DNA of 64,000 nucleotides from a virus (Duplodnaviria > Caudoviricetes): positions 1 through 64,000 of the IMG/VR virus record IMGVR_UViG_3300047400_000090; one strand, written 5' to 3'. Below, piece by piece: positions 1,897 through 63,947 of this stretch. A program made the position numbers and the translations under genes. Under the pieces are notes generated by a model that saw only the letters and a list, made by a program, of their open reading frames with translations, was not told the DNA's origin and made no database searches. Numbering within the stretch: the stretch's first letter is position 1; each line of letters opens with the position of its first letter.

Positions 1897-2900
1897 ACAA
1901 CTTCTAGCCCCTTAGTGGATCCCTTTAAGATAACGTGGTCGGACTTAGCGAGCTTAATTGACTCAGACTCTACCGAACCAAGGAAGTCTAGAACATACTT
2001 AGAGTTTACCTTAAAAACCATCCCTGGAGCAACCTGAGGGCAATCTACCTCGCTATCCACTCCTCCGTCGGCGACATCCTCCGAAGAAACCGACAGACAC
2101 CCTACGTCAGACTTAACTACAAACGGTGCAAAATCCCGCTCCTTCGAGAACTGGGATGCCGCCCTAATCGCCGCCCCGAAGGACCGTACTTCTACTTCAC
2201 TAAACGGCAGGTCGCCCATTAGCTTCGGAACGATCTTCTCAACCTCTACCTGCTTCCTAGATAGCTTCCTATGGGTAAAAGTAACCCCTCCTCCGCGAAC
2301 AGAGATCGAGTTGTCTCCAATAGCTACCTCCAGATTCCCAGTTAGACCACCCATAGCTCGCACCAGACGAACAGGGATAGTATTACCGATCAACTGGTCC
2401 ACCTTTGACATAACACAGAAGGCCATGGCACTACTGTCGTGCCCACAGACTACCATTCCCTTACCTAGCGGCCTAATACTCGCCCCCTCGGAGAAGAAAT
2501 TGCCCTGTAGATTGTCGCGCCTTGGAATGATAGACACAACAGCCATAGCAGCAGTAACGACATCTATTGGAAAATCACTCCAGGACTGGAGTGATTCTGT
2601 CTCAGGTACTGCCGACTCTTCTGACAGCGGTAGCCGAATAACAGACCTACCTACCTTTATTACCGCAGAGCCCTTATTGATTGAGATATCAACCATCCCG
2701 GTAGCAGAACCTTTCAGGACCGATAGCAGCCTAGCCATAGGCAAAACAAAGACCTCCTCACCGGCCCCCTGGATAGCCACAGAGACAGACATCGACGGCC
2801 CCACTGAGGAAATCTTACCAGGAGTTACTTTAACTAGTCCATTGTTACCCAGGGAGCAGTTCTCAAGTGCAGAGAGAAGAATCTTATGGTCTATTTTCAC
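1869..2900 (-). CDS. dnaN: DNA polymerase III beta sliding clamp homolog
   Basis: 343 aa, three-domain pattern, GHDSSAMA (ATDxxRL-like), FKVNSKYVLDFL C-terminal motif. Confidence 0.8.
   Translation of the reverse strand: MKIDHKILLSALENCSLGNNGLVKVTPGKISSVGPSMSVSVAIQGAGEEVFVLPMARLLSVLKGSATGMVDISINKGSAVIKVGRSVIRLPLSEESAVPETESLQSWSDFPIDVVTAAMAVVSIIPRRDNLQGNFFSEGASIRPLGKGMVVCGHDSSAMAFCVMSKVDQLIGNTIPVRLVRAMGGLTGNLEVAIGDNSISVRGGGVTFTHRKLSRKQVEVEKIVPKLMGDLPFSEVEVRSFGAAIRAASQFSKERDFAPFVVKSDVGCLSVSSEDVADGGVDSEVDCPQVAPGMVFKVNSKYVLDFLGSVESESIKLAKSDHVILKGSTKGLEVVCSIATMRI
2573..2596. promoter_or_regulatory. dispersed palindrome copy (perfect)
   Basis: AATCACTCCAG-GA-CTGGAGTGATT, inside clamp gene. Confidence 0.85.
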
Positions 2901-3172
2901 AAGATTAGCTTGGTGGGTGGAGTAAACTCAATAGCCTCAGCGGTTCCCATGTCTGGGATTAACTCAAAGACATTAGCCCCAGGGATCAAGATTGTCCCAT
3001 TGGGAAACTTGGCGGAAGACTTGATGGTAATATCAACATCAGGCGTCCTGAATCGCTCATCGAGCAACTTCTCTAAGAACTTCCAGGCATCCCCAACTTC
3101 CTTCTCTGAGACGTAGGCGGCCTGTACCGTAACACCCCTGGGCGACTTGAACTCCAGTAAAAATCTAAACAT
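2897..3172 (-). CDS. hypothetical protein
   Basis: Overlap-coupled to the clamp gene. Confidence 0.6.
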   Translation of the reverse strand: MFRFLLEFKSPRGVTVQAAYVSEKEVGDAWKFLEKLLDERFRTPDVDITIKSSAKFPNGTILIPGANVFELIPDMGTAEAIEFTPPTKLIL

Positions 3173-3175
3173 TCC

Positions 3176-6247: not shown

Positions 6248-6251
6248 GCGT

Positions 6252-7108: not shown

Positions 7109-8349
7109 TACAGCCTCTCAATTAAGTACCGCTGCGCCTCAGCCATCGACTTGCCGCAGCAGTCCTGCAGGTAATCCGAATCAACCATCTTGCTTCCGTT
7201 ATTGATTCTGAACCATAACTCTGTTAATTGCAACAGGTTAGCAGGCTTAAACTCAAGGCGATAGTCGATGCGGCCAGGGCGGATGAGGGCCGGATCCAGC
7301 TTATCAATGCGATTAGTAGTCATAAATAGCAAGGTGCCCTCAATGGACCCCATGCCATCTAAGCAGTTAAGAAGCGCAGATAGCGAAACACCCTTGCGCT
7401 CTGGGGATAATTCCCGGTCAGGGGCTACACAGTCTGCGTCTTCGATTAGGATAATTGACCCCTTGCGAATCTCGCTAAAGAGGTACTCCAGGCGGTCGTC
7501 ATCCATGCCACTGCTTCCTAGGCTCAGGACGTACATGTCCATCTTAAGCTCACCAGCCAATGCCGCAATCAGGCTGCTTTTGCCGGAGCCAGCCACCCCA
7601 TGGAAGAGGTACCCACGGTGCCATGGGATACCTAGTTGCTTATACCACTCGCTGGAGTTAATAAACTTCTTGGCGTCTTCCAGGAGGGCATCCTTTTCTC
7701 CCTGGGGAAGAATTACGCTATCCATGGCCCTAGGGCTGACTTCCTTGTAGGATCTCCAGTTCCCGTAGACCGAGTTATAGATTTTGATGCTAGAGCGAAC
7801 CTTGAAAGAAGCCATGGAGGCATCTCGGATGATCTGCTTAGCCTTCTCGGTGGAACGAGTAAAGACTTTAACAGAGATAGTCTCAAGCATCCTTCCACCG
7901 CCAGAGACCTTAGAGGCGGAGCCCATTTCGTCTTTATGGCGGTCAATTCTGATTACTTGTCCGTTGACATAAACCCAATGAATTCCTATAGATGGAGAGA
8001 AAATAACAGTTGGTGGCTCTTTCGCAGCAGGGTCATGATCAGGGATAGCGTCAATGATTGAAGTCACTCCAGTCCTGGAGTTCCCGAAGTTATCCACAGT
8101 GGTAGCCTCAAGCCGCCTAGAACGGCTAGAGTATTCCAACTTCGACATCCACAGGGATAGACTATCAAACAGCGGGTCTGAGTTTCTGACGTGGATATCA
8201 ACACTGATTCTACGGACCAGCCAATAGAAAATCTCCGATGGGATCTTGCGTGCTAGGGCCATTACGGCACCGGCAGCCATGACAATTAGGCCGCCAGAAA
8301 CAAACTGGTTCTGAAGCTGATCGGTTAAGGAGCCAAGAAGAGGAATCAT
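7108..8349 (-). CDS. BCS1-like AAA+ ATPase with N-terminal transmembrane segment
   Basis: GYLFHGVAGSGKSS, LIEDADC, LSALLNCLDG, MTTN, LDPALIRPGRID; hydrophobic GGLIVMAAGAVMALA. Confidence 0.85.
   Translation of the reverse strand: MIPLLGSLTDQLQNQFVSGGLIVMAAGAVMALARKIPSEIFYWLVRRISVDIHVRNSDPLFDSLSLWMSKLEYSSRSRRLEATTVDNFGNSRTGVTSIIDAIPDHDPAAKEPPTVIFSPSIGIHWVYVNGQVIRIDRHKDEMGSASKVSGGGRMLETISVKVFTRSTEKAKQIIRDASMASFKVRSSIKIYNSVYGNWRSYKEVSPRAMDSVILPQGEKDALLEDAKKFINSSEWYKQLGIPWHRGYLFHGVAGSGKSSLIAALAGELKMDMYVLSLGSSGMDDDRLEYLFSEIRKGSIILIEDADCVAPDRELSPERKGVSLSALLNCLDGMGSIEGTLLFMTTNRIDKLDPALIRPGRIDYRLEFKPANLLQLTELWFRINNGSKMVDSDYLQDCCGKSMAEAQRYLIERL
8062..8085. promoter_or_regulatory. dispersed palindrome copy
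   Basis: AGTCACTCCAG-TC-CTGGAGTTCCC, inside BCS1-like gene. Confidence 0.75.
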
Positions 8350-9100: not shown

Positions 9101-10466
9101 TCTTTCTCGCCTCCTCTACGTACTTTCGTGAATCTTCCGAGTAAAAGAACTCGTCCTCGGCTGGTGTGATCCCATCATAGAACTCAAAGTCATCAAACGT
9201 AATCCACTTATCCACCGCTTTGGCCGCCTTGAGAACCGGAAGGAATTCTGAGAGCCTAAAACTATCGACGTAGTGCTTTCTGACCATCTCTGCCAGATCT
9301 AACTGCCCGGTCCTGCGGTAGTGTTGTGAAAGCTCATCACGAAGCATCCCTTTCCGGGTCTTAATCTTCCTCATCCTCGGGGTTAGGTTGCCTTCTGCGT
9401 CTACAAACTGACTAGCAGACACTGGAGTAGTGTTTTTTGCGGCCTGGGACGACGCTGGCTCGATTTGCTGCCCTTGGACGTCCGTAACCGCGTGAGATTC
9501 GCTATTGCTCGTTTCTGGCTCGTTTTCGCACTCCAGGACTGGAGCGATTTGGTCGGCCAGGGAGATGTAGTCAGGAATCGACCTAACAATCCCCCTAGGA
9601 TCGACCTTAATTCCGCTAGAGAGGGTATCCTTGATGGCCGCCGAGGCCGCCGAGGTAATAACTTCTACTTCGTACTGTCTTTCCAAGTTAGAGACGGCGT
9701 CAAGAATTAGACCATCGATAGACTTATCACTCTTCCCTAGAAGGCTAGTAGCTTTCTTAGATTCTGGAACCGAGACCAGTAGTCTGGCAATTCTTCGGGA
9801 GGTAGTCAAGCCCATAGAGTCATCATACCCAACTTCACCTCCGTTATCAACCTCAGATCCTAATCCACAATCTTGATCCGCTATCAAGCTCCCTTGCCCA
9901 TGGCCTGCTACCTTTATTAACTTTTCTACATTATTAACGAAGGTTAATGGTTCTTCTAAGTTCTTCTTTGTTCTTCGTTCTTCTATGCGTGTTGAATTGA
10001 CCACGGTAGCGTGTTGATTTCCACACGGTGGCGTGTTGATTTCCACACGGTGGCGTGTTGAATTGACCACGGTTGACCGTGTTGAATTGACCACGGTTTG
10101 AGTTAATAGGATGTTATTGGCGGTGACTTGTAGTGCGTTCCAATTGACCTTTCCGTTGCCTATTTGTCTATCTACTTCTTTAGATATCTCCTCCATGATT
10201 GGAAGGATTGTCACAAACAGTGGGGCCCCATTCTTGCAGGTCTTGTGGATTAGGCCACGTTTTTCTAGGCTGTTAATGGAGTTCCTGATTGCCTCAGTTG
10301 ATACCCCAAATAAGGCGCTGGAAGCCTCCGTCCTGCGTACATTCCCGCTACCTCCTGGTAGGTTCTTTCTTAGCCAAGAGAGTACTAGCGCATCTCCCCT
10401 ATTCCCCTGGCAGGCAATCATACAGTCGGCAAAGGTTTGCTCAAACCACATCTGATTATCTCCCAT
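9093..10466 (-). CDS. replication initiator-like protein (N-terminal HTH, internal iteron-encoded repeats)
   Basis: GVSTEAIRNSINSLEKRGLI winged-HTH pattern; repeated TVVNSTR; upstream of primase/helicase as for lambda O. Confidence 0.65.
   Translation of the reverse strand: MGDNQMWFEQTFADCMIACQGNRGDALVLSWLRKNLPGGSGNVRRTEASSALFGVSTEAIRNSINSLEKRGLIHKTCKNGAPLFVTILPIMEEISKEVDRQIGNGKVNWNALQVTANNILLTQTVVNSTRSTVVNSTRHRVEINTPPCGNQHATVVNSTRIEERRTKKNLEEPLTFVNNVEKLIKVAGHGQGSLIADQDCGLGSEVDNGGEVGYDDSMGLTTSRRIARLLVSVPESKKATSLLGKSDKSIDGLILDAVSNLERQYEVEVITSAASAAIKDTLSSGIKVDPRGIVRSIPDYISLADQIAPVLECENEPETSNSESHAVTDVQGQQIEPASSQAAKNTTPVSASQFVDAEGNLTPRMRKIKTRKGMLRDELSQHYRRTGQLDLAEMVRKHYVDSFRLSEFLPVLKAAKAVDKWITFDDFEFYDGITPAEDEFFYSEDSRKYVEEARKNG
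9526..9549. promoter_or_regulatory. dispersed palindrome copy
   Basis: TCGCACTCCAG-GA-CTGGAGCGATT, inside initiator gene. Confidence 0.75.
9988..10097. repeat. five ~20-22 bp direct repeats (iterons), putative replication origin
   Basis: CGTGTTGAATTGACCACGGT x3 (9988, 10054, 10078) and CGTGTTGATTTCCACACGGTGG x2 (10010, 10032); adjacent T-rich tract ~9925-9985. Confidence 0.8.
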
Positions 10467-12054: not shown

Positions 12055-12078
12055 TGTCGCTCCAGTCCTGGAGTGATT
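12055..12078. promoter_or_regulatory. dispersed palindrome copy
   Basis: TGTCGCTCCAG-TC-CTGGAGTGATT, intergenic, downstream of promoter 12129. Confidence 0.8.
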
Positions 12079-12128: not shown

Positions 12129-12157
12129 ATTATAGCCACCGATTCACGGATTGTCAA
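12129..12157 (-). promoter_or_regulatory. sigma70 consensus promoter
   Basis: TTGACA-17bp-TATAAT on the minus strand. Confidence 0.85.
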
Positions 12158-17548: not shown

Positions 17549-18297
17549 TTGATTAGGTTCCCCAGTAGCGGGATCCCGTGCTTCGACAGTTCAACTAACT
17601 GACTGATGATAAACTTAACCTGCCCAACCTTCTTGCGGTAGTCTCTTGTGGCCAAATCAAGCGTCTTGGCTACCTCTGACAGAGATCCTGCGCTATCCGC
17701 CACGCTCCCCAGTGCCATCTTGACGTCATCGGAGGCAATTAGGGCATCCAGGTCAGAGATGGTCTTATTCGCCGCTCCCAGGTCTAGTGAGGCTAATTGC
17801 TCATTGGCTGTATCGGCCAGGGCACCCAATTTGGCAAACACATCGGCACTTGAAAGAGTGGCTACCGTGCCAGACTTAAGGAGTTCGTTAGCGGACGCGC
17901 TAATGGTTACCAAGTTTTTATCTATGTCATTGATAACATTGTTTAATGAGTCCAGGACTGGAGTGATTTGCTGGATAGTCTTATCGGCGTCCGAGATGAG
18001 ATTAGCCGCCTCTTTTGCAGCCTTGGCCGTCTCCTCTGAAGCTACCGAGGAGTTAGTAGAGGTCTTCTCGGCTGCCTGGGCAATCTTAGGTGCCGCCTTG
18101 GCAATTGCCCCAGTGGCCGTGTTTATCGATCCAGAGATGGCATCCCACCGAGAGGTGAAGCAGGTGGCGTTACCCTTGCAGTCGGTTAGTCCAAGGATGG
18201 TTTCTCGCAGGGGTTTGATAACCGGATAGAAATAGACAGCCGTGGCCAGTAGGGTTACGAGCAGAGCGATCTTTAAGGATTCTTTAAGTTTGTTCAT
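17545..18297 (-). CDS. membrane-anchored helical/coiled-coil protein (MCE-stalk-like or spanin-like)
   Basis: N-terminal TM then long Ala/Ser/Leu helical region. Confidence 0.55.
   Translation of the reverse strand: MNKLKESLKIALLVTLLATAVYFYPVIKPLRETILGLTDCKGNATCFTSRWDAISGSINTATGAIAKAAPKIAQAAEKTSTNSSVASEETAKAAKEAANLISDADKTIQQITPVLDSLNNVINDIDKNLVTISASANELLKSGTVATLSSADVFAKLGALADTANEQLASLDLGAANKTISDLDALIASDDVKMALGSVADSAGSLSEVAKTLDLATRDYRKKVGQVKFIISQLVELSKHGIPLLGNLIK
17945..17968. promoter_or_regulatory. dispersed palindrome copy
   Basis: AATGAGTCCAG-GA-CTGGAGTGATT, in CDS. Confidence 0.8.
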
Positions 18298-18633: not shown

Positions 18634-20399
18634 CGCGCCTTAAGTGCTCCAATCATGTCTGATACTTGTCCTTGTGTATAGTTTGACATAATGTGTCCAA
18701 AGTAGTCCTGCTTTTTTGGAAACATTTGTCTTGCTTTTTTGTCAAGAGCCCACAGCAAATCCATCTGTGGATTAGTCGGAGGCTTCGACTTCCAGGTAGA
18801 AGTCGCCTTGGTAAAACCGTACTCGGCCTCTGAGAGGTTCTTCTCGGTCTGCAGTACGGCTTCCTTGAGTGAAGGATAAGACCCCTCAAAAGTGATGGTT
18901 CCCTTGCTTAATCGCCTTACATCAAAGTTGCCCAGGGTGTTCTCTTGGATGGTGTAGGAGGCGTTAAGCGTACCTAGGCGCAGCCGATTGTCTTCCTGGA
19001 GCCAGTCTAGGTCGCTAATTCCCTTGACTGCGGTAGCCTTTTGTGGGGGTGAAATTAGGTCAATTTTCTCGATTAGGCCGCTAAGTTTGGCAAGTGAGTC
19101 AATTTGCTCTAGCTTAACGAGTGCCTTCTTGTTGGCCGGGATTTTAGCTAATTGATTCTCAATGTCATGAAGCGTCTCTACGATCTTCTTCCCATTTAGG
19201 TCCATCTTTGGGCTCATGCCAAAGAGCGTAGGAGCCGAGATTAGGGAGTGCTTAGAACAGACGTCTACAAAGTCAATTACGATGCACTTATCCTTCTTGT
19301 TTAAGGGAGGAGTACCTGCCGCAATTAGGGCCGCTTCTTCCTCCGGGGAGGGATTAGGACGTACTCCTCGGCCAATGGATTGGGTGTACACAGTGCCGCT
19401 CCTGGTGTCCCTAGCCATACCAATTACCTCGATAGATGGATCGTCATAACCCTCTACGAACAGCATGGCACTAGTTAGGGCCTGGATGTCTCCTCTACGG
19501 TGGGCCGCTAGGGCCTCCTTGCGTTCTGCCGCAGGGGTCTTCCCAGATAGAGCCTTGGATACAACTCCGTGTTCATTGAGAGTTAGAGCTAGGTCGTGAG
19601 CGTGCTGGACATTAGCACAGAAGAAGATAGCTTTCTTCTTGGGGGCTATCTCAATGTACTTCTCGGCAATTAGGCGATTGCGCTCAGGGATATTGATGGT
19701 CCTGGCGAGATCTTCTGGCTTAAAATCTCCACCCAGACTACCAACACTGGAGATGTCTACATGAGTATTGACTCGGTAGGCTTCAATGTCGCAAAGCCAT
19801 TTATTTTCAATGCCCCAGCGCAGATCGTAATTGAAGGCAATTTTATCGAAAAGCAGATCTAGTCCCTTATTGTCTGCCCTCCTGGGCGTAGCCGTGAAGC
19901 CGACTAATAGCTTTTCTGGGTCATTGTACTCGGGTTCATTCTTGTAGACCCTGAAGTGCTTGCATAGATTAATCGGGCCTGCCGCTATGAATCTATGGGC
20001 CTCATCGGCAATTACTACACTAACCGTCTCTGGATTGATGGTCAGGAGTCGCTTATTGAACTCTGGGGTTCCATCCTCTGCCGTCCTGGTGCTAGAGACG
20101 GTCTGGAGGGAGACTACGATGATATCATCACTGACATCATGGCGTAATCCAGCTTTCTCTACTCCGATCTTGGCGTGAGGATTAGCTGCCTGGGCCTTAT
20201 GGACGGTCTGCCAAACCAACTCCTCGCGATTAACTACTACAACCTGCCGCCCCTTGGTCTTAAGGTGGTTGGGAATCTCCGAGAAGATTACGGTCTTACC
20301 CATCCCCGTGGCAGCTACGCACAGTAGGCGTCTATTGCCCTGGGCATAGTTGTCGCGGATGGATAACAGTCCTTCTTGCTGGTATGGCCGGATCGTCAT
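18630..20399 (-). CDS. SF2 DEAD/DEAH helicase (IRC3/ResIII-like)
   Basis: ATGMGKT, DEAH, FTATP.R.D, QSIGRGVR. Confidence 0.92.
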   Translation of the reverse strand: MTIRPYQQEGLLSIRDNYAQGNRRLLCVAATGMGKTVIFSEIPNHLKTKGRQVVVVNREELVWQTVHKAQAANPHAKIGVEKAGLRHDVSDDIIVVSLQTVSSTRTAEDGTPEFNKRLLTINPETVSVVIADEAHRFIAAGPINLCKHFRVYKNEPEYNDPEKLLVGFTATPRRADNKGLDLLFDKIAFNYDLRWGIENKWLCDIEAYRVNTHVDISSVGSLGGDFKPEDLARTINIPERNRLIAEKYIEIAPKKKAIFFCANVQHAHDLALTLNEHGVVSKALSGKTPAAERKEALAAHRRGDIQALTSAMLFVEGYDDPSIEVIGMARDTRSGTVYTQSIGRGVRPNPSPEEEAALIAAGTPPLNKKDKCIVIDFVDVCSKHSLISAPTLFGMSPKMDLNGKKIVETLHDIENQLAKIPANKKALVKLEQIDSLAKLSGLIEKIDLISPPQKATAVKGISDLDWLQEDNRLRLGTLNASYTIQENTLGNFDVRRLSKGTITFEGSYPSLKEAVLQTEKNLSEAEYGFTKATSTWKSKPPTNPQMDLLWALDKKARQMFPKKQDYFGHIMSNYTQGQVSDMIGALKAR

Positions 20400-20401
20400 G
20401 G

Positions 20402-20956
20402 CTACTTGCCTAGGATGTACGGCAGGATCTCAGCCCATAGTGCTTCTCGGATATCCACCGTGAAGCTAGCATCCTCTAGGGCGTCGGCAAAAGCAGCCTT
20501 CATCCCCTTAACCGTGTCCCAGTTATCCGCCGGGTTGTAGATCGTCACTCCGGCGTGTGCCTTGCCTGATTCTAGGTCAAAGAGTTGGCAGGTAATTACT
20601 TGCCGCAGTTGCGGCTTCTTTCCATCCGTCCAGGGCATTACCTGGAGACCGAAGGTGGCGTAGAGAGTCCCGCCGTCTAGGGGGATAAGACTACCTAGTC
20701 CGTTGAGGTGCTTGTGTTGAATGTTCATTCTTGTTTCCTTTTTAGTAACTTGACAATCCCAGAGGGAGGGTTTATATGGCTTAGGGTAAAATTTAGTTAC
20801 CTGCGAAGCATTGTTGGCGAAGTACCAGATTGCGAATAGCCAGCCAGAATTTGGAGAATTTAAGTTGGTATATGTAGTTGCGTAAGTTTGTCCAATTGAT
20901 CCTCCTTCTTTTATTACGACAGAATAAGCCGGGCCATACATTAGGCTAAGATTCAT
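20402..20956 (-). CDS. hypothetical protein (true start may be MNIQHKH)
   Basis: Operon position. Confidence 0.5.
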   Translation of the reverse strand: MNLSLMYGPAYSVVIKEGGSIGQTYATTYTNLNSPNSGWLFAIWYFANNASQVTKFYPKPYKPSLWDCQVTKKETRMNIQHKHLNGLGSLIPLDGGTLYATFGLQVMPWTDGKKPQLRQVITCQLFDLESGKAHAGVTIYNPADNWDTVKGMKAAFADALEDASFTVDIREALWAEILPYILGK

Positions 20957-21690
20957 CGCCCCAAATGAAGCGTCTTTTCTCGGTACGCCTCTACTCCTGG
21001 GACATTAAACATCTCACCCATGGCCCTAGCCTTGGCCGTAAGAGCCTTCTCGTCTGGAATCCAGTACTCTCGGTACCGGGCATCCTTCATTGCTGCCTCC
21101 CATAGCCGGTCAGGATTGACTACCGTAATTGCCCATGGCTTAAAGCGAGTCCCTGCCGCAGTACTAGCCTTATCAGTGATAGCCAAGATAGCACGATCCT
21201 CAAAGGGGTCATTCTTGGCCGCTACCTCCGCTGCTTTTAGCGCCTTGATCCGAGCCTCTTCGGCTAACTGCCAGTCCAGGCACCTCTTGCGCTGCTCGGC
21301 AATGAATCGAGTAGCTGGTCCAGTAATGGCTTCTTTCTCGGCCTTAAAGGAAGCTGCTGCCGCCTTGATTAACTCTTCTGTCTTGCGGAAAAGCTCATTG
21401 ATTCCCTTGATGAAGGTATCTGCCGCCTTGATTTGTCCGATAGAGTAGTCGTGTGTGGCTTGGTCTACCACCTCAATGGCTGATCGTTCAATCTTAGATA
21501 GTTCGGCCTTGGCCGAGGTTGTGTCTGGCTGCTCAATTTGAAACATCTTCTTCTCCTGTCTTAATTTCTGCCCAAGGATTAATCTTTGGGCCATAAGTTC
21601 TAGTAGTTCCTGAGACCTTGGGGATTGACTTGTCGCCCCACTTCTTAATCCGCTTCCCTGGCTTGAGATTCCGTTGAACAACGAAGGCAC
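20953..21690 (-). CDS. helical phage protein of the recombination module
   Basis: Coiled-coil-like; C-terminal VPGVEAYREK; sits beside exonuclease and ERF. Confidence 0.55.
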   Translation of the reverse strand: MPSLFNGISSQGSGLRSGATSQSPRSQELLELMAQRLILGQKLRQEKKMFQIEQPDTTSAKAELSKIERSAIEVVDQATHDYSIGQIKAADTFIKGINELFRKTEELIKAAAASFKAEKEAITGPATRFIAEQRKRCLDWQLAEEARIKALKAAEVAAKNDPFEDRAILAITDKASTAAGTRFKPWAITVVNPDRLWEAAMKDARYREYWIPDEKALTAKARAMGEMFNVPGVEAYREKTLHLGR

Positions 21691-21925
21691 GGTGGAATTT
21701 CAGGAAGTCATCCCTTAGGTCATTGACATCTTTTCGTAACTGCCTGACGTATGCCCATAGCTTCTGCGATGGCCCTCTCAGCGTGCCACGGTAAGCCTCC
21801 CCTGAGAGCTTGAGCCTAATGGCTCTCCACTCGTAGGTGGTAATACCAAATCGCTCCATAATTTCCTTGGGAGGAACGCCCTGACAGAACCACTCCCAGA
21901 CCTCACGATCTCGCTCTGAAATCAT
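21533..21925 (-). CDS. HTH DNA-binding protein
   Basis: EVWEWFCQGVPPKEIMERFGIT HTH-like pattern. Confidence 0.55.
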   Translation of the reverse strand: MISERDREVWEWFCQGVPPKEIMERFGITTYEWRAIRLKLSGEAYRGTLRGPSQKLWAYVRQLRKDVNDLRDDFLKFHRAFVVQRNLKPGKRIKKWGDKSIPKVSGTTRTYGPKINPWAEIKTGEEDVSN

Positions 21926-22499: not shown

Positions 22500-23289
22500 T
22501 TGCAGCTAAAGCCTTCCCTGTTTTCTCGATGGCGGCAAGGTCCGCAAAAGCCTTAGCGAGTTCCGATTGAGTCATGCTAAGTAGCGCCGAAAGTGGCTTT
22601 TCGTAGTCGGCTCCAGCCTGTGGCAGGGCAGAGCTATCAGTCTTGCCAAAGTAGGCGCAGTAGAAACGCACAAGGTCTTCTCGACTTACTCCCTTAGCTA
22701 GTACAGAGTCCCGCATCTCCTTAACGGTCACTCCAGGACTGGAGTGATTTGGAGCGAGTTGCCCAGAGCCGTTAGTTGGCTGGGGGGGCGCTTTAGGTGC
22801 CGCCTTGGGCGCTTGCTTTGCTTGCGTAGTCTGCTGAGGAGGAGTGGAGGCTTTATTGGCATCGTCATCGAGTTCTGAGTAGAGGCTAAACATAGCTCCC
22901 AGGCCGTAGCGGCGAGCATAACTAATGGCTGATCCAATGGCCTGTGGCTTGCCGTCTTCGGAGGTAAGGGTAAAGACCGAAGAGAGCCACTGGGAGGAGG
23001 CTGCGTGGAAGACTACGGTCTCTACGGAGATGGTCTTGCCTTCTACTTTGGGAGGCTGCATCATTAGTAACCCAGCCTTAACTAGTGGTGCCTTGATGGC
23101 TTCCATACAGGCAGCAAGGTCGGCGTAATGGCTCTTAAAGTGTGGATTAAGGGAGTCCTTGGTAGCTGCCTCAATCTCAGTCCAGGCGGCAAGGAAGGCC
23201 GGGAGGATTTTGTCAATCTTCTCTGAGGTTCGGAGATTGCTAAAGGGGAGCGAGTTAGGCGGTTGGGCCGGGGTAGTTGAGTCTGTCAT
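22492..23289 (-). CDS. erf: ERF family single-strand annealing recombinase
   Basis: NPHFKSHYADL, QAIGSAISYARRYGL. Confidence 0.9.
   Translation of the reverse strand: MTDSTTPAQPPNSLPFSNLRTSEKIDKILPAFLAAWTEIEAATKDSLNPHFKSHYADLAACMEAIKAPLVKAGLLMMQPPKVEGKTISVETVVFHAASSQWLSSVFTLTSEDGKPQAIGSAISYARRYGLGAMFSLYSELDDDANKASTPPQQTTQAKQAPKAAPKAPPQPTNGSGQLAPNHSSPGVTVKEMRDSVLAKGVSREDLVRFYCAYFGKTDSSALPQAGADYEKPLSALLSMTQSELAKAFADLAAIEKTGKALAASA
22726..22749. promoter_or_regulatory. dispersed palindrome copy
   Basis: GGTCACTCCAG-GA-CTGGAGTGATT, inside erf. Confidence 0.8.
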
Positions 23290-23437: not shown

Positions 23438-23628
23438 TTGGGTACGCTCCTAAAGTTTTCCAGATGTCGAACTGCCTGTCGATTAAAGGCGCAGTACCCT
23501 CCTGCTACTATCAGATCAATGGGTCCAGTCCTGAACCTCTCGGAGAATTTGCAGATGCCGAACCGTCCGCCCCAGAAGCTGCTCATGCCGCTCATGTTCT
23601 TACCGTTAAACATCATGAAAATTCTCAT
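23431..23628 (-). CDS. array-3 short ORF (MRIFMMFNG)
   Basis: ATGA overlap; MMFNG shared. Confidence 0.55.
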   Translation of the reverse strand: MRIFMMFNGKNMSGMSSFWGGRFGICKFSERFRTGPIDLIVAGGYCAFNRQAVRHLENFRSVPNW

Positions 23629-28297: not shown

Positions 28298-28465
28298 TTA
28301 CTCGAAGTCTGGTCCGTTCCGCAGTACGGAGATCCCCTTCTCGATTAGGATCTTGTACATGGCCGAGGTGGTAATGTTTCGCATCAGCGCCATGATCTTG
28401 ACCTCTCGGTGCAGGTCTCCCAGGTCTAGGGATAGTTGTGTCTTCTTTGGTTCGTTCTCAGTCAT
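28298..28465 (-). CDS. ribbon-helix-helix-like DNA-binding protein, 55 aa
   Basis: Manual translation MTENEPKKTQLSLDLGDLHREVKIMALMRNITTSAMYKILIEKG: strand-helix-helix pattern. Confidence 0.55.
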   Translation of the reverse strand: MTENEPKKTQLSLDLGDLHREVKIMALMRNITTSAMYKILIEKGISVLRNGPDFE

Positions 28466-29614: not shown

Positions 29615-30016
29615 TTACTTGATCCTCTCTTCTACGAAATTCTGGTATTTCTTTGTCTCATTTCCGTGGCTGGCAGGTGCGTGTAGCGCCACAATCTGTC
29701 TAACTGTCAATCCATCCGCCAGTCGCCGCGCTATTAGCCGGTGTAGGGCCATCCAGCCGTCTTCTGGCGTCTTGCACTTGGCATACCCGGCACTGCCGCG
29801 TTTACACCCAGGCTGCCCCTTGTAGAGTAGTGCGCCAGGATTGTTGTACCGCTGTGCCATGGTTCCGGGTTTATTGTACCCCTCGTAGTCTGCCATGGCA
29901 AGGCTTACTTTGTAGGCCGTCCGCTCGAACTCCAGCACTGGAGTGATTGGAGCCTCTAGAGTGGCTGGGCCAATGGCCAGGATGGTTAGGTTCGCTATTA
30001 CCGTAGGTAGGTTCAT
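29615..30016 (-). CDS. lysozyme-fold / cell-wall hydrolase-like protein
   Basis: EG...QRYNNPG.L...TPEDG..AL...T..IV..HAP..GNET..Y pattern of phage P5-like muramidase homologs. Confidence 0.55.
   Translation of the reverse strand: MNLPTVIANLTILAIGPATLEAPITPVLEFERTAYKVSLAMADYEGYNKPGTMAQRYNNPGALLYKGQPGCKRGSAGYAKCKTPEDGWMALHRLIARRLADGLTVRQIVALHAPASHGNETKKYQNFVEERIK
29925..29948. promoter_or_regulatory. dispersed palindrome copy
   Basis: TCGAACTCCAG-CA-CTGGAGTGATT, in CDS. Confidence 0.8.
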
Positions 30017-34987: not shown

Positions 34988-35293
34988 ATCCCATCTCCTT
35001 TGATTGTAATAACTTAGCTAATAACGCTTACTCAAGCCTAATGGTAGCTTACGAGATCGGCGAAAGCTAACCCATAACGCCTACTACAGGGCAAGTGTTA
35101 TTAACTAAACTCATTAGAATCAATAGCCTAGACTGGTAAAGCTAAGCTGAAGCTAGAAGTTTAGTTCTGGACTAATTACTGAGTGCTAGGTACAGTAGTA
35201 CCACGGCTAGGGCAAGTAGTCCAGTATCGCGTAAGGCTTCGCGTAGTCGCCGTCGCCGGTCGATCCGCCGGTATAGTTCGCGTAGGTCGTGGT

Positions 35294-38633: not shown

Positions 38634-38772
38634 CGAACTGTTCCTCCTACATAACTACCCTGTATCCCAAGGTACTTAGGTAGAACCATAGCACTTATAG
38701 CTATGTTTGGTCCTAGATCGTCCTATTTAGTCCAGATTGGCCCTCAGTTTTCGGCCAACATTGGCAATTCCA

Positions 38773-41088: not shown

Positions 41089-41112
41089 AATTAGTCCAGT
41101 ACTGGAGTAATT
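41089..41112. promoter_or_regulatory. dispersed palindrome copy
   Basis: AATTAGTCCAG-TA-CTGGAGTAATT, intergenic. Confidence 0.8.
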
Positions 41113-45172: not shown

Positions 45173-45441
45173 AATTCACCTACCTTGCTAGATCTCCAGC
45201 CAATCTTTGGGTAATAGTGCCATGCCATGCTGTCTGTTCTGGCGTAAGACGCCAAGACGCATCCATATAACCCATTCAAAATGCTAGCTTTACTCTGCAT
45301 TGAGACAAGTATCTTGCTTTGCTGTGTGACGCTCCCAGACAGATAGATCGTCGCCTTGGTAGTGGCACACCATACTGGAATCTCTCCCGTTGACCAGTAC
45401 CTGTGGCCAGCAAACGGTAATGCTGTAATCCAGTGTTTCAT
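45169..45441 (-). CDS. array-5 short ORF (MKHWITALPF)
   Basis: First ORF after internal promoter and palindrome. Confidence 0.6.
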   Translation of the reverse strand: MKHWITALPFAGHRYWSTGEIPVWCATTKATIYLSGSVTQQSKILVSMQSKASILNGLYGCVLASYARTDSMAWHYYPKIGWRSSKVGEF

Positions 45442-45445: not shown

Positions 45446-45469
45446 GATTAGTCCAGTACTGGAGTGATT
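45446..45469. promoter_or_regulatory. dispersed palindrome copy
   Basis: GATTAGTCCAG-TA-CTGGAGTGATT, between promoter 45493 and start codon 45441. Confidence 0.85.
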
Positions 45470-45492: not shown

Positions 45493-45521
45493 AGTATAGC
45501 CAGTTATTATCTACATGTCAA
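45493..45521 (-). promoter_or_regulatory. sigma70-like promoter inside array 5
   Basis: TTGACA-17bp-TATACT. Confidence 0.8.
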
Positions 45522-47403: not shown

Positions 47404-47763
47404 ATGGCTAAAACGCCTAAGTATCTCTGCGACAACCCTAATCCCCATGTCCGCAGGAGATGCAAAGACTGCATCAGGATCTACAATAAACTCCACCTTG
47501 AGCGAAAGAAAGCCACTACCAAAGCCAGAAAAGAAGCCGCCAAGGCTCTCGGCCTAGATCGACTCCCTAGAATCAAGAAACCTAGAAAGATTACTACCCC
47601 ACGGCCAGTCTATAGAGACCTCATGGAAGAGTGGATTAGAATCAAGTCTCACATGGAGCTTAACCCCGAGGACAAGAGGATCCTAACCGGAGCCATTACC
47701 GAGGCAACCAAGGTGGATCTCTTGGATGAAATAGCGGCAGAATTTAGTCCAGTCCTGGAGTGA
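47404..47763 (+). CDS. basic hypothetical protein, possible nucleic-acid binder
   Basis: Lys/Arg-rich; C..H...CxxC; stop codon lies inside a palindrome copy. Confidence 0.6.
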   Translation: MAKTPKYLCDNPNPHVRRRCKDCIRIYNKLHLERKKATTKARKEAAKALGLDRLPRIKKPRKITTPRPVYRDLMEEWIRIKSHMELNPEDKRILTGAITEATKVDLLDEIAAEFSPVLE

Positions 47764-47765
47764 TT
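47742..47765. promoter_or_regulatory. dispersed palindrome copy
   Basis: ATTTAGTCCAG-TC-CTGGAGTGATT, spans a stop codon. Confidence 0.8.
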
Positions 47766-49648: not shown

Positions 49649-50317
49649 ATGGATCCCCGGCCCCTACAAGGAGGCAACGTGAAGTTAGACCAGACGACAC
49701 ATCGACTCCAGGATGGATGCTTCTTTCCAGAGAAGCAAGCAAAAGACCTACTCGTGCTACACTTTACCTCTGGCTATGGTGCAGCCTCCTCTATCTCTGG
49801 CTGGAACGCCGTAAAGAATGGTGTATCTACCCCGTACATTCTCGACCTAGATGGAACACTCTATGAGACTTATGACCCATCGTTGTGGTCGTATCACCTA
49901 GGGATCCCAGGATCCGACTCAGGGAACCATAAGCACGATAAGCGAAGCATCGGGCTAGAGATTGCAAATATTGGACCCCTTAAAAAAATAGGGAATGATC
50001 TCCTCTGCTGGCCGAAGAACTTTACCCAAAGGTACTGTTCTGCGTCCGATAAGGGGAGTTTTGTACAGAAATCCTACCGTGGATTTGACTACTATGCAGC
50101 CTTTACCGAGGCACAAAAGAAGGCTATCCCTGAGGCGGTAAAGATGATCTGTGATAAATTTGGCATACCCATGGTTATGCCACCCAAGGATAAGTGGTTG
50201 GAGTTTGACTTGCCGTACTACTCTAAGTGGAAAGGAATGTCCAATCACGGGAATTTTCGAGCCGACAAGTACGATTTAGGTCCAGCACTGGAGTATGATG
50301 AAATTTTAGCAGTTTAG
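49649..50317 (+). CDS. N-acetylmuramoyl-L-alanine amidase (endolysin)
   Basis: VLHFT, SIGLEI, HG...KYDLGP Amidase_2 motifs. Confidence 0.85.
   Translation: MDPRPLQGGNVKLDQTTHRLQDGCFFPEKQAKDLLVLHFTSGYGAASSISGWNAVKNGVSTPYILDLDGTLYETYDPSLWSYHLGIPGSDSGNHKHDKRSIGLEIANIGPLKKIGNDLLCWPKNFTQRYCSASDKGSFVQKSYRGFDYYAAFTEAQKKAIPEAVKMICDKFGIPMVMPPKDKWLEFDLPYYSKWKGMSNHGNFRADKYDLGPALEYDEILAV
50275..50298. promoter_or_regulatory. dispersed palindrome copy
   Basis: TTTAGGTCCAG-CA-CTGGAGTATGA, 3' end of amidase. Confidence 0.65.
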
Positions 50318-56574: not shown

Positions 56575-56952
56575 ATGACTATTACACTAACAAAGATGGC
56601 GAGAATTGCCATTAGTAAGAACATGATGGCCAAGACCGGCCTTTCTGCTAAGGACATCAAGATGGCTATTGGGATCGATAATAAGATCGCCGTCCCCGAG
56701 GCGGAGATTAAGGAAATGCACGTTGATTCCTGCCCTGTCTGCCAGCAGCCCGTTGGCTTCGACAAGAAGATGGCTATTGCCGGAGAACCCAAGTCGGTTG
56801 ATCTTGAGTCCTCTGAGATCCGCTTCCTTAAGGAACTTCTGGATGAGTTGATTAAGGGTATTACCCCGCAACTCTACAAGGACTGGTACGGAGAAGCCCT
56901 GGCAAAGTTCGAGGAAGCAGTCAAGGCAATCGATTCTCCAACCACGGCCTAA
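56575..56952 (+). CDS. hypothetical protein
   Basis: Operon position; CPVC. Confidence 0.55.
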   Translation: MTITLTKMARIAISKNMMAKTGLSAKDIKMAIGIDNKIAVPEAEIKEMHVDSCPVCQQPVGFDKKMAIAGEPKSVDLESSEIRFLKELLDELIKGITPQLYKDWYGEALAKFEEAVKAIDSPTTA

Positions 56953-56975
56953 ATCACTCCAGCACTGGACTAAAT
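56952..56975. promoter_or_regulatory. dispersed palindrome copy
   Basis: AATCACTCCAG-CA-CTGGACTAAAT, immediately before the dut start codon. Confidence 0.85.
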
Positions 56976-58862: not shown

Positions 58863-59309
58863 ATGACAAATCTTTACCTAATCCCCGTTGGCATGGCTAT
58901 CCCGCCGATCTTTTGGGCTGTCTACTGGGCATTTCAGCAGTTCCGGTCTATGACTGCGGCTATTTCGTCCCTAAAAGAGGCTGTAGAGCAACTTTCCGCC
59001 AAGGAAGTGGGGGCTATTGAGGCAAAAGTTGACCTTTCTCCACTGCTGGCTTCGCTCAAGGGCCTGAATCAGTCCATTACTGGACTAAAAGACGTGATGT
59101 TTACACCACCGGAGCCCCATCAAGACCCTCCGATGAGCGAATTACGGCTAAGGGACGACCGTCAGGCTTATGACTTGTTCGATACCTACTACAGGGACCT
59201 ACTGGAGCAGGGAATGGATCCAGAAGAAGCAAAGAACAAGGCAGGGATGTACGCTAATGAGGTGGTTGCCGCCAGCCTGAGTGGTGGTGGCATTGGATTT
59301 TCAGAATAG
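58863..59309 (+). CDS. membrane-anchored coiled-coil protein
   Basis: N-terminal hydrophobic segment. Confidence 0.55.
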   Translation: MTNLYLIPVGMAIPPIFWAVYWAFQQFRSMTAAISSLKEAVEQLSAKEVGAIEAKVDLSPLLASLKGLNQSITGLKDVMFTPPEPHQDPPMSELRLRDDRQAYDLFDTYYRDLLEQGMDPEEAKNKAGMYANEVVAASLSGGGIGFSE

Positions 59310-59732: not shown

Positions 59733-59734
59733 CC

Positions 59735-60343: not shown

Positions 60344-60405
60344 AAAAAGTATTGTAGCACAAGATTCGAGACTATACTAGAAGTAGGGCACGACCCGGAG
60401 GATTT

Positions 60406-60753: not shown

Positions 60754-60765
60754 GCGGGATGAATA

Positions 60766-61029: not shown

Positions 61030-61204
61030 CGATATTTTGAAGATAGAAAAACCCCAGGTTACCCAGGTTGTTACCTTGGAAATGGATAAGCGGCAACAAG
61101 AGGCCATTGGGAAACTGCGCCAGAGCAGAGATAAATTCATGTCTCAAGTGTCTCAGGCCGCCAAGATTGTTCCCAGTGGGCTAAATGATGCCAGGGCCGT
61201 CTAA
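61007..61204 (+). CDS. hypothetical protein
   Basis: Operon position. Confidence 0.45.
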   Translation: MRVRELISDILKIEKPQVTQVVTLEMDKRQQEAIGKLRQSRDKFMSQVSQAAKIVPSGLNDARAV

Positions 61205-61598
61205 AGCCAAGGGAACCGAACTAGCCGTAATCGAGTCTACCGCCCTAGCTCCTCAAGGGCCAAAGCCAGGGGAACTACAGAAGTGGACACAAGAGCGCCT
61301 GTGCGAAGACGCCGTTGAGCTTTACGGATCATTCATCTCCTCCCTAAAGCAGCAGATGAAGCCCTATACCATGGCTAATGGTGACATTGTAATGCCCAGT
61401 GTCAAGATCATGGAATTGGCGGCAGATGTTCTAAAGCTGCGAGATACGGCGGGGATCAATATCAATCAGAACTTCGGTAGCACGACGATCAATAATGGCG
61501 GGACAAACTTCTCCCCGGAAGACATTCTCCGTAGGCAGGCAGAGAGAGATAGTAAGCCTGTTATCATAGACGTAGAGGTAATTGAAGATGCAAAGTAG
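61185..61598 (+). CDS. possible terminase small subunit
   Basis: Helical protein upstream of terL, ININQNFG tail; positional inference. Confidence 0.4.
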   Translation: MMPGPSKAKGTELAVIESTALAPQGPKPGELQKWTQERLCEDAVELYGSFISSLKQQMKPYTMANGDIVMPSVKIMELAADVLKLRDTAGININQNFGSTTINNGGTNFSPEDILRRQAERDSKPVIIDVEVIEDAK

Positions 61599-61770
61599 CG
61601 CCGATAGCGCCAAGATCGCCAAAGTTCTCAAGGAATTCAAGGAGGGCAGCCTGCACTCCACCTCAAAGAATGGACCTAGGGTCAAGACTCGCCAGCAAGC
61701 CATTGCCATCGCCCTTAGTGAGCAACGCAAAGCCGGTGGAGGGACCATGAACCTTAGCAAATCTAAGTAG
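61582..61770 (+). CDS. small basic protein (KV.xEFKxGxLHS...QAIAIALSE, DUF6496-like)
   Basis: Motif recognised. Confidence 0.7.
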   Translation: MKMQSSADSAKIAKVLKEFKEGSLHSTSKNGPRVKTRQQAIAIALSEQRKAGGGTMNLSKSK

Positions 61771-63947
61771 TGATTGACCTTTCCTCTAGAGATAAACTAG
61801 TAGCCGATATCATTGCCTACTTTGACTCCGATAAATTCCTAGTCAAGGACGCAAAGAACCCAGATGACCTACGCCTTCGCCGCTTAGGTCTACTCTCCCC
61901 GTCAGATGCCAAGATCATCGAGAGTGAACTACTAAAGTGCTCAGAAGATTATAGATACGCCGCAGGAAACTACTTCTGTATCTCCGATAAAGACGGCAAC
62001 GATCAGTTAATGAGCCTCTGGGATGGTCAGGAGTTGTTGCTCCAGCGAATGGAGGACATGAAGGCCCGTGGCAAGCCCCAGTTAGTCATCGCCATCAAGG
62101 CTAGGCAGTTAGGGTTGTCGATGTTTGGCTGCTCCATGGTCTTCTGGAATAGCGTCTTTAAGCGCAACAAGAAGGGTCTGATCGTCTCGGAAGACTTAGT
62201 CCAGTCGCAGAACCTATTTTCATCCTACCTTTCCCCACTCTATAGGCAGCTTCCCTGGTGGCTAAAGCCGCAATCCTCTGTCTTTAAGGAAGATGGAATC
62301 GTCTTTGACAAGCCAGCCAAGGAAGGCGGAATGGGACTAAACTCCTCCATTGCCGTGCAATGGGCCTCTCGCAAGGGCGGTCTAGGCCAGGGCTACAAGC
62401 TCAATGCCTTCCATGGGTCAGAGTTCACGGCCTGGGATAACCTAGCCGAGAGCCTGGAACAAGACCTCAAGTATGCCCTAGTGCGGCAGCCTTCTACTAT
62501 TGGCATCCTTGAGTCCACGGCCAAGGGTGCAGGTACGCCTAGTCATGCCTTCTACAACAAGTGCGAGGCACTAGCGGAACAGTCTGACTGGGAGGCGGTA
62601 TTCTTGCCGTACTTCTTTGAAAAGACTAGGGTTATGGCTCCAAGGAAGGGTTGGAGACCGGAGAAAGAAGACCTTCGGATGCGCGAGGTGGTCTATGCCA
62701 ACTGGACCGTCTGCGACAATAAGAAGTGCCTGCGCTATGTCAACAGGAAGTCCAGTACTGGAGTTCGAGATGGAGAAAAGTGCCCCTCGTGTAAGATTGG
62801 CACTCTGGGACCGTACACCTTAACCGATGAACAGATTTACTTCATGGTTAATGAGCGGCTAAACTCCTCTGCCCAGAGGAACATCGACCAGGAGCTTGCC
62901 CTAACCGTAGAAGAAGCCTTCGTCGCCGAGGGTGAGCAGGTCTTCTCAAAACAATCTATCAAGGCCCTAGAGTACATGGTCCAGACGGCTAATCCTCCGC
63001 TACCTGGGTTTATGGATAAGCATGGCTTCTTCCATGGCTACAGGGAGGACGACCTTGACCGGAAGTGCCACCTAGATGGCTGTAAAATTTGGCATGGTGG
63101 AGAAATCCAGAACATAAGAGTCTGGGAAAAGCCCAGGACTGGAGAGTCGTACCAAATCGGTGCCGATATCGGCTATGGAAAGGGTAAAGACTACTCTGTT
63201 GCCACCGTCATTAGAGTCGGCAGGAGCGGTGGACGAGATTATCAATGCGCCACGCTTAGGTCTAACATCATAGAACCATTGGAATTCGCCTATCTCATTG
63301 CCAAGTTAGCTAAGTGGTACAATGAGGCCCAGGTAGCCATTGAGTACAACACTCCGGGTAATTCCACGGCTGATCACCTAGCCAAAGTCTTGAATTATCC
63401 GAACATCTACCGAGAAAGAGCAACCAATAGCACCCTCCACTGGGTAACTAATCAAAAGTCTAAGCCTAAGATTATCATCACGTTAGACCGATGGCTAAAG
63501 GAAGAGATCTTCATTGCTAGGGATAAGCTGCTCCTGGACGAAATAAAGGTCTTCACTAAGGCGGTTGACTCGGTATCTACGGGGGCAGAACAGGGATTTA
63601 ATGATGACTGCCTAATGTCGGCTATGATTGCCCTCTATACGGCCCATGCCGGGGACTACGAGGACAATCTTGGGATCGTGCCCCAGAAGATCGACAAAGA
63701 CCCGACAACTTGCCTCTATCGGATGGACTGTACGGCCTGTCATAAGATGTGGGGATCTGACAACCCTCGGATGATGGATAACTGTCCGTTCTGCAAGTCT
63801 ATGATGATTAGGGCTACCAGAAACATGTCAGTTCAGATGGATACAAGCTCCGATTATAGGGAGTCTTCTATGTTCACTCCAGACATGCTGGACGTTTACA
63901 GTAAAAATGATTCTCATTGGTACGAACCGTCCTACGAATCTCTTTAA
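61770..63947 (+). CDS. terL: terminase large subunit
   Basis: KARQLGLS Walker A, ILESTAKG, GADIGYG and NDDCLMS nuclease motifs. Confidence 0.92.
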   Translation: MIDLSSRDKLVADIIAYFDSDKFLVKDAKNPDDLRLRRLGLLSPSDAKIIESELLKCSEDYRYAAGNYFCISDKDGNDQLMSLWDGQELLLQRMEDMKARGKPQLVIAIKARQLGLSMFGCSMVFWNSVFKRNKKGLIVSEDLVQSQNLFSSYLSPLYRQLPWWLKPQSSVFKEDGIVFDKPAKEGGMGLNSSIAVQWASRKGGLGQGYKLNAFHGSEFTAWDNLAESLEQDLKYALVRQPSTIGILESTAKGAGTPSHAFYNKCEALAEQSDWEAVFLPYFFEKTRVMAPRKGWRPEKEDLRMREVVYANWTVCDNKKCLRYVNRKSSTGVRDGEKCPSCKIGTLGPYTLTDEQIYFMVNERLNSSAQRNIDQELALTVEEAFVAEGEQVFSKQSIKALEYMVQTANPPLPGFMDKHGFFHGYREDDLDRKCHLDGCKIWHGGEIQNIRVWEKPRTGESYQIGADIGYGKGKDYSVATVIRVGRSGGRDYQCATLRSNIIEPLEFAYLIAKLAKWYNEAQVAIEYNTPGNSTADHLAKVLNYPNIYRERATNSTLHWVTNQKSKPKIIITLDRWLKEEIFIARDKLLLDEIKVFTKAVDSVSTGAEQGFNDDCLMSAMIALYTAHAGDYEDNLGIVPQKIDKDPTTCLYRMDCTACHKMWGSDNPRMMDNCPFCKSMMIRATRNMSVQMDTSSDYRESSMFTPDMLDVYSKNDSHWYEPSYESL
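62745..62768. promoter_or_regulatory. dispersed palindrome copy
   Basis: AGGAAGTCCAG-TA-CTGGAGTTCGA, inside terL. Confidence 0.6.

Follow-up and report, generated by a model that had tools for sequence, protein, structure and literature searches.

Introduction

The stoperators of the Cluster A mycobacteriophages are asymmetric 13-mers whose orientation follows that of transcription; a single protein recognizes them, the immunity repressor of the temperate phage in question (gp71 in L5). In the KorB-OB system of the IncP plasmid RK2 and in ParB-parS, palindromic sites act replicon-wide through one symmetric protein, and MatP organizes a chromosome domain by reading 23 dispersed 13-bp palindromes (matS). 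Ribbon-helix-helix (RHH) proteins are also known to read dyad or repeated sites, as in the Arc and Mnt operators of P22, the omega heptads and the ParG/ParR centromeres, and two RHH units typically bind operators of approximately 21–24 bp. The closest published analogue of the element described here is found in the Cluster O mycobacteriophages, where a 17-bp dyad, TGTTCGG-NNN-CCGAACA, occurs in 34 copies within and between genes and is found neither in the host nor in other phages; the authors read it as the site of a dimeric protein, considered a role in transcription unlikely and left its function unexplained (Cresawn et al., 2015, PMC4351075). In this work, we analyzed a 24-bp palindrome with a TCCAG-NN-CTGGA core that is dispersed along the first 64,000 nucleotides (hereafter the window) of the IMG/VR tailed-phage record IMGVR_UViG_3300047400_000090, which has 86,007 bp and is estimated to be 85% complete. 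The palindrome had been pointed out in an earlier note made from the letters of the window. We refer to the phage as G000; coordinates are those of the window unless a contig with an L or G number is named.

Results

A 24-bp word repeated along the G000 genome

The 13 exact TCCAG-NN-CTGGA cores listed in the earlier note are all present at the places given there (Table 1); the positions of that note are the starts of the 24-mers, such that each core begins 6 bases later. By shuffling, 0.09 cores are expected per window, with a maximum of 1 in any of 100 shuffles. The 86-kb record holds 19 exact cores in total and not one copy of the reversed control word, and an extra copy is found in the left extension of the record (L008:16819). 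The two copies described as degenerate, at 440 and 59067, proved to be genuine one-mismatch copies with good flanks. The flanks of two further one-mismatch matches, at 23524 and 63132, are poor, and these two are probably due to chance, as about 2.5 such matches are expected.

Across the 19 exact copies, the TCCAG and CTGGA arms are invariant, and the central dinucleotide is TA in 8, GA/TC in 7, CA/TG in 3, and AC in 1. The flanks fall into discrete types, AATCAC, (A/T)TTAG or TTAC, with (G)AAG in five copies. Relative to transcription, the asymmetric G/C flank variants are oriented one way in five cases and the other way in five, with no consistent polarity, and the 60 nt on either side of the sites hold no further conserved element at a constant distance. 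Each half-site spans about 12 bp, AAT(C/T)A(C/G)TCCAG(T), and can stand on its own: lone half-sites, of which the earlier note listed those at 35167 and 38725, are present at 35167 (−), 35217 (+), and 38728 (+), and the nine-mer TTAGTCCAG occurs 16 times against approximately 0.7 expected, with 9 of the 16 outside full sites. The pair at 35167/35217 falls in the sole long gap without a full site (11 kb).

For extended forms of the motif, IMG/VR and the genomes of 185,579 species, one per species, contain only single matches at chance level. The form with 18 specified bases has five single occurrences in 596 Gb of species genomes, which is the chance level (the host is not identified), and a search of the literature returned primer coincidences only. 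In three near-complete relatives with about 60% terminase identity, the TCCAG-NN-CTGGA core is found zero times or once. Variants of G000 in other samples are 99.4–100% identical, and the 99.4% variant retains the four sites out of four that were compared. Beyond these variants, identity among terminase homologues drops from 100% straight to 62%, and no close relative was found by megablast against phage records or by a terminase pattern scan.

The constraint acts on double-stranded DNA

The 12 in-gene copies use all reading frames, as had been noted from the translations (five in frame 0, five in frame 2, and two in frame 1). An identical stretch of 15 bases codes for KSSTG in both the terminase gene and a 181-aa gene, where relatives have TPTG, IKGG, VQSG, EAAG or KATK without any indel; at the terminase site itself, site 13, the relatives read KTPTG, KIKGG or KVQSG, also without an indel. 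In a 2034-aa virion protein, the conserved block DGVAKQTFTVNT is changed to DGTQVQTWTVNT precisely over the site, with AKQTF replaced by QVQTW at positions conserved in relatives and again with no indel. From these amino acid replacements without indels, it follows that the sites arose by point mutation at some cost to the proteins and not by insertion, and the lack of an indel at in-gene sites means that they are not insertions of a mobile element. REP (repetitive extragenic palindromic) elements, which lie outside genes, fold into stable hairpins tagged by GTAG or CGTC and are accompanied by a RAYT transposase gene, were rejected as a candidate on the 12 of 19 copies placed in genes without an indel, on the weak hairpins and on the lack of any transposase seen.

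We also folded eight of the sites as RNA. The perfect copy (core at 2579) reached −15.5 kcal/mol with z = −3.9, and the other seven gave z values from 0.3 to −2.7. The core alone allows only a 4-bp stem with a 4-nt loop, and extension of the stem is impossible in the many sites that pair an AATCAC arm with an ATTTAG arm, since in sites of the AATCAC/CTAAAT type the arms oppose C to C, C to A and A to A. The base next to the core is equal in both arms in 8 of 19 sites, whereas about 9 are expected if the arms vary independently. No T-run follows the sites, and Rfam recognized nothing at them, its only matches being two tRNAs. An intrinsic terminator or other structured RNA was therefore rejected: the folds are weak, there is no T-run, conserved flank or covariation in pairing, and no Rfam family matches.

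The constraint acts on double-stranded DNA. This follows from the independence of reading frame, the creation of sites by non-synonymous change, the independent half-sites, the weak hairpins, and the purifying selection on a sister motif described below.

The copies are evenly spaced and enriched between genes

Gaps between the 19 exact copies average 4.5 kb with a coefficient of variation of 0.54 and a minimum of 1464 bp. In simulations of random placement, such evenness has P = 0.003 and such a minimum gap has P = 0.001; when the two one-mismatch copies are included, the values are P = 0.004 and P = 0.0002, respectively. The largest distance from a copy in the 86-kb record is about 11 kb, and most of the record lies within about 3.5 kb of one.

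Strictly intergenic copies make up 7 of the 19, against roughly 11% of intergenic DNA (P = 0.004), and three further copies are at most 65 nt from a stop codon. As read from the gene list, about half of the sites are within roughly 70 nt of a gene end. The sigma70-type promoters proposed at 12157-12129 (12/12 consensus positions) and 45521-45493 (11/12) do each precede a leader site, the sites being centered at about +56 and +29 from the expected transcription starts. It was likewise correct that sites adjoin the start codons at 45441 and 56977, and a third case occurs at 67266, beyond the window. The majority of intergenic regions and the other good sigma70 promoter matches have no site.

Related phages carry arrays with other words

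By de novo counting of dyads in the relatives of G000, we found arrays built from different words (Table 1), with a density similar to that of G000 and some of the sites in the same genes. The outer GTCC...GGAC of several words is also that of the ATTTAG-type half-site of G000, such that the system looks old, with an inner specificity that is drifting. The looser word of G002-G004 is found as a 19-mer within three mismatches 17–21 times per genome, against 3.9 expected. G003 and G004 have 85% DNA identity and 18 alignable sites, at which the motif columns differ by 7–8% whereas the ±60-bp flanks differ by 16% (P = 8e-4; 2e-5 with the spacer). Within the family, the DNA word is thus under purifying selection, as shown for the sister motif and not for the word of G000 itself.

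The places of the sites are loosely common to lineages that use different words. Shared places within genes are Erf, the RusA-like gene and the 148-aa gene; those at 3′ ends are the 181-aa gene and the amidase gene, whose counterpart in G006 ends with the motif of that phage; those upstream of genes are the YAcAr gene and the adaptor gene; and a last one is the start of the giant gene.

Some other repeats were observed in these genomes. In G005 (L069/L088-L090), a 604-aa gene present only there is located between the terminase gene and the RHH gene and is bounded by the dyads of that phage (21618 and 23489), each 7 nt past a stop codon, an arrangement that looks like a cassette. L005 (Logan SRR29078105; 18 kb, 59% terminase identity) lacks all four dyad classes and has 36 occurrences of CACGGC against about 9 expected, 26 of them on one strand and usually as TCACGGC; codon usage or a word with polarity may account for this excess. 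L158 and L163, with terminases of about 28% identity and no RHH homologue detected, carry an 18-bp dyad, CTGAAACGC(A/T)C(G/A)TTTCAG, in four copies within 3 kb that are clustered and not dispersed. At both ends of the G004 record (1–120 and 93780–94360) there are tandem CCGGAGCCG/CCGTAGCCG repeats of a glycine-rich repeat type, which may represent a repeat-rich gene split by the assembly or the sign of a circular contig.

A candidate reader encoded in the packaging module

The core of the family has the module order terminase, 181-aa protein, 124-aa zinc-ribbon protein and portal. A word-based homologue search with the 181-aa protein found only the protein itself, and a full HMMER search found 288 relatives. 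Its AlphaFold model has a pLDDT of 90.8 when built with an alignment of 106 sequences and of 50 with 8 sequences. In the model, residues 92–144 and 10–54 align to whole RHH domains (PutA, Arc, CopG, AtaR and ParG) with Z scores of 4.2–5.5 and root-mean-square deviations of 1.6–2.6 Å; the best matches are PutA (Z 5.5, 1.9 Å, 44 of 44 residues), Arc (5.2), CopG (5.1) and AtaR2 (5.1). Pfam RHH families match 25 of the 106 members of the family. The model thus points to a protein that likely has the RHH fold twice.

A motif copy is found 63 nt ahead of the stop codon of the 181-aa gene. Among 11 loci with different words, seven have a copy within the homologous gene or at most 122 bp from it, often at the 3′ end, which would happen by chance in approximately 0.2% of cases if shared ancestry is ignored. 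We consider the 181-aa two-module RHH protein the most concrete candidate for the reader of the sites, although a weakly supported one.

Other candidates fared worse. The earlier note had proposed as binders the products of 28298..28465, 21533..21925 and 47404..47763, but none of the three has a family match or a detectable homologue in the array-bearing relatives. The second of these ORFs is overlapped over about 158 nt by an ORF at 20953-21690 (−, GTG start), which relatives conserve over 243 aa, so that one of the two gene calls is probably wrong. The proteins next to the sites have no Pfam or PHROGs matches, and a protein atlas gave nothing usable for P0121, the product of the third ORF. 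A reader of the ParB type was rejected after a six-frame search of the 86-kb record with PF02195, which gave no match at E ≤ 1 with positive controls; about 11 kb of the genome lies beyond that record. Choosing a reader by gene content was not feasible either, as nearly all early genes are lineage-specific.

Genome context and neighboring genes

G000 belongs to a family of uncultured podophages of about 100 kb. In other assemblies, the same phage reaches up to about 97 kb, and the left extension of the record, of about 6.8 kb, adds genes for a glycosyltransferase and a ribonucleotide reductase. Samples in which the phage is present include ERZ27299064 and SRR1792852. A search of 50,697 phage records did not reveal a cultured relative, the best terminase match having 25–27% identity. 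The gene content includes a P22-type portal, SU10-type adaptors, a large terminase, DnaB, a split primase, Erf with an exonuclease, two tRNA-Arg genes and many orphan early genes. Genes are transcribed leftward up to about 47.3 kb and rightward beyond.

Downstream of the promoter at 12129-12157, a perfect TTGACA-17-TATAAT, and of a long leader lies P0123 (10907-12013, −), which encodes 368 aa with a clear signal peptide and a beta-rich body rich in Thr, Ser and Asn. It is not present in relatives and looks like a secreted or surface moron. P0122 (9093-10466, −), a 457-aa orphan of the replication module with a motif copy within the gene, has a winged-helix-like N-terminus (weak HTH_DeoR match) and the peptide TVVNSTR three times, and may be an origin-binding protein. 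Beyond the window, at G000 71487-71545 (L006 ~19718-19780), the 152-aa gene is followed by a site with a good intrinsic terminator (AGGGAG...CTCCCT and a T-run) immediately behind it; next comes the ribosome-binding site for the adaptor gene.

Table 1. Motif copies and associated features in the G000 window, and dyad words of related phages.
Feature	Position	Strand	Core start	Sequence	Context
Site 1	2573..2596		2579	AATCAC-TCCAG-GA-CTGGA-GTGATT	Perfect palindrome; within 343-aa clamp-like gene
Site 2	8062..8085		8068		Within BCS1-type AAA gene
Site 3	9526..9549		9532		Within P0122, 457-aa gene
Site 4	12055..12078		12061		Intergenic leader, ~56 nt past expected start of 12/12 sigma70 promoter
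Sigma70-type promoter	12129..12157	−		TTGACA-17-TATAAT	12/12 consensus; upstream of site 4
Site 5	17945..17968		17951		Within 250-aa gene
Site 6	22726..22749		22732		Erf recombinase gene, variable linker; 2-aa insertion vs. relatives
Site 7	29925..29948		29931		Within 133-aa gene
Site 8	41089..41112		41095		Intergenic, between 635-aa orphan gene and metallophosphoesterase gene
Site 9	45446..45469		45452		Intergenic, between 11/12 sigma70 promoter and start codon at 45441
Sigma70-type promoter	45493..45521	−		TTGACA-17-TATACT	11/12 consensus; upstream of site 9
Site 10	47742..47765		47748		Overlaps final codons and stop of P0121 (119-aa Cys-rich basic protein)
Site 11	50275..50298		50281		36 nt ahead of amidase stop codon
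Site 12	56952..56975		56958		Intergenic; occupies gap from stop (56952) to dUTPase start (56977)
Site 13	62745..62768		62751		Within large terminase gene; codes KSSTG
One-mismatch copy	440..463		446	TCCAGGACTGTA	Good flanks; within RusA-like 152-aa gene
One-mismatch copy	59067..59090		59073	TCCATTACTGGA	Flanks AATCAG and TTTTAG; within 148-aa gene
Two lone half-sites	35167..35224			TAGTCCAG	Intergenic; inside-out (TCCAG ends outward), ~42 bp apart
Lone half-site	38728..38735	+		TTAGTCCAG	Intergenic
55-aa ORF	28298..28465	−			Ribbon-helix-helix-like by eye only; no family match, no homologue in relatives
130-aa ORF	21533..21925	−			N-terminus helix-turn-helix-like by eye only; overlaps conserved N-terminal extension of next gene
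Gene of predicted two-module RHH protein, start	63989..64000	+			Runs to 64534; whole gene L006:12220-12765
Dyad of G005				TAG-TCCGA-NN-TCGGA-CTA	6 copies in 42 kb
Dyad of L121				AG-TCCAG-AA-CTGGA-CT	5 copies in 23 kb
Dyad of L106, L110				G-TCCAA-NN-TTGGA-C	6 copies in 19.5 kb (L106)
Dyad of L101				G-TCCGCC-N-GGCGGA-C	4 copies in 12.7 kb
Dyad of G006, L003				C-ACTTT-N5-AAAGT-G	9 copies in 31 kb (G006)
Dyad of L095				AGTCT-N6-AGACT	4 copies in 22 kb
Dyad of G002-G004				T-ACTG(C/A)A-N5-T(G/T)CAGT-A	Looser; TACTG-N9-CAGTA has 5 exact copies in G003

Discussion

A symmetric DNA-binding protein encoded by the phage probably docks on the copies of the 24-bp word, a prediction drawn from the pattern of the sites. 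The earlier note had taken them for the sites of a dimeric phage protein acting as a repressor or roadblock, or as a DNA organizer or packaging/protection factor. The part that stands is the constraint on DNA, with sites distributed genome-wide that look like the targets of a two-fold symmetric protein.

We tentatively favor a whole-genome role for the bound array, in marking, organizing, packaging or protecting the phage's own DNA, and regard it as a reading that stops slightly short of probable. It is favored because of the even spacing, the costly sites in the middle of late genes, the words private to each lineage and the candidate encoded in the packaging module; the even spacing and the mid-gene sites of late genes fit a coverage role better than the control of promoters. 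In such a mechanism, a two-fold symmetric phage protein, putatively the two-module RHH protein of 181 aa whose gene lies between those of the large terminase and the portal, would dock on each double-stranded copy. The copies would have been built singly, by point mutation, where it is tolerated, that is, in intergenic DNA, at gene ends and in variable loops of proteins. The array would then mark or organize phage DNA for packaging, compaction or protection instead of controlling individual promoters; once occupied, a copy next to a start codon or in the leader of either of the two strongest early promoters would also block expression there. A bolder version, which we consider doubtful, is that the array is a fast-diverging identity tag of the whole family, in which the dyad of each lineage, placed every few kb, is read by the RHH protein of the packaging module, so that the phage could organize or package DNA recognized as its own and keep out that of the host or a rival phage. 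If this were true, dispersed symmetric packaging or identity marks would replace the single pac or cos site.

Several observations weigh against the whole-genome role and its candidate reader. The collections hold no relative of G000 at 70–95% identity, which bears on the conservation of the word of G000 itself. For the 181-aa protein, the Foldseek E-values are not significant and the Z scores, near 5, are middling, so the RHH fold is likely but not certain; middling Z scores are expected for domains of 45 residues. The strand residues of the RHH modules show no co-variation with the motif: the strands of G000 and L121 are unlike despite a common TCCAG, as are those of L106 and L110 despite a common TCCAA. 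The loosely conserved locations of the sites suggest that their surroundings matter, an effect that coverage alone would not predict. Finally, the enrichment in intergenic DNA and at gene ends, together with the two promoter-proximal copies, fits a transcriptional role equally.

Such a role would be played by a network of operators or stoperator-like sites at which a phage repressor, bound in leaders and within operons, blocks initiation or elongation by the host RNA polymerase and, for example, shuts off early genes or silences a prophage. We consider this the strongest of the alternatives, though less likely than not. A leader site follows each of the two best sigma70-type promoters, three sites stand against start codons, about half are near gene ends, and the intergenic enrichment and the loose conservation of positions agree with it; there are precedents in the L5 stoperators, the C1 operators of P1 and the conserved inverted repeats of phiC31. 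However, Pfam and PHROGs searches of the genes examined in the 86-kb record and its left extension found no integrase, immunity repressor or partition gene, most early genes being orphans and the record 85% complete. Many copies lie in the middle of late structural genes, where a roadblock would be harmful, and yet they were made by non-synonymous change. In addition, the sites are palindromic with asymmetric variants that show no polarity (5 vs. 5), most intergenic regions and the other strong promoter matches are siteless, and the even spacing is not predicted by such a network.

It is improbable that the sites are targets of a site-specific nuclease or of recombination, either as nicks or breaks that start recombination-dependent replication or as hot spots for the exchange of modules among co-infecting relatives. 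G000 encodes HNH-type, endonuclease VII-type and RusA-like nucleases, the Erf annealing protein and a PD-(D/E)XK exonuclease; several sites are located at junctions between family-conserved and lineage-specific genes; the 604-aa gene found only in G005 lies between two sites; and indels in Cluster O are bounded by the repeats (PMC4351075). Nevertheless, we could connect none of these nucleases with the motif, cleavage at 20 copies of a palindrome would leave a fragmented genome, and in the alignments made the in-gene sites show neither indels nor mosaic boundaries. The nick sites known from phages are also asymmetric.

It is very improbable that the sites act as hairpin signals in RNA or single-stranded DNA, whether as terminators, as processing or stability elements or as operators bound by an RNA-binding protein: any palindrome can fold, as the perfect copy does, many copies are at gene ends and in leaders and the 5-nt-spacer dyads of relatives are plausible stem-loops, but seven of the eight sites that were folded scarcely exceed shuffled sequences, if at all, compensatory pairing between the arms, T-runs and Rfam matches are lacking and mid-gene copies occur on both coding strands. 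Equally remote is a host factor exploited by the phage (a regulator, a nucleoid protein, or a restriction-modification or defense component), for, even if no phage reader has been identified and different words in related phages could reflect different hosts, the 18-base form is at chance level in the species genomes searched (host not identified), restriction targets are normally avoided and not enriched, and the words differ even among phages close in gene order.

Should the array indeed mark phage DNA for packaging, organization or protection, phage genome biology would gain a new layer, and the array would be a source of orthogonal protein-DNA pairs. Genome-wide dyad arrays of phages have been reported, in Cluster O in 2015, and never explained. 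New in G000 and its relatives are the sites bought with amino acid changes in conserved proteins, the over-even spacing and a whole family that keeps the array while changing its word, as would be expected of self/non-self recognition. In the 181-aa family-core protein, there is also a concrete two-module RHH candidate for a site of 24 bp; we know of no other two-module RHH protein in a packaging module.

Compared with the stoperators of Cluster A, the G000 array also has one short word genome-wide, in and between genes, with some copies just past promoters, but its site is palindromic without consistent polarity and lysogeny genes were not found among the genes examined. Like KorB-OB, it comprises a dozen or more palindromic sites, at about one per 5 kb; unlike it, the word is unrelated to OB and the 86-kb record has no ParB N-terminal domain. 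The likeness to the RHH systems lies in a candidate reader with the RHH fold predicted twice, and the outer heptad of the G000 word, AATCACT, happens to fit the omega heptad consensus, WATCACW; the difference is that the strand residues of the candidate do not change with the motif. Whereas the candidate of G000 is encoded by the phage, MatP belongs to the host. With the dyad of Cluster O, the G000 word has in common invariant inverted arms, a free spacer, tens of copies placed in intergenic DNA, at gene ends and in gene interiors, and its absence beyond chance from other genomes (the host of G000 not being identified). It differs in its length of 24 bp with a 2-bp center, in belonging to an unrelated group of phages, in its discrete flank variants (AATCAC, ATTTAG and GAAG) and in the over-even spacing shown here; and whereas Cluster O shares one word, the sister lineages of G000 switch theirs.

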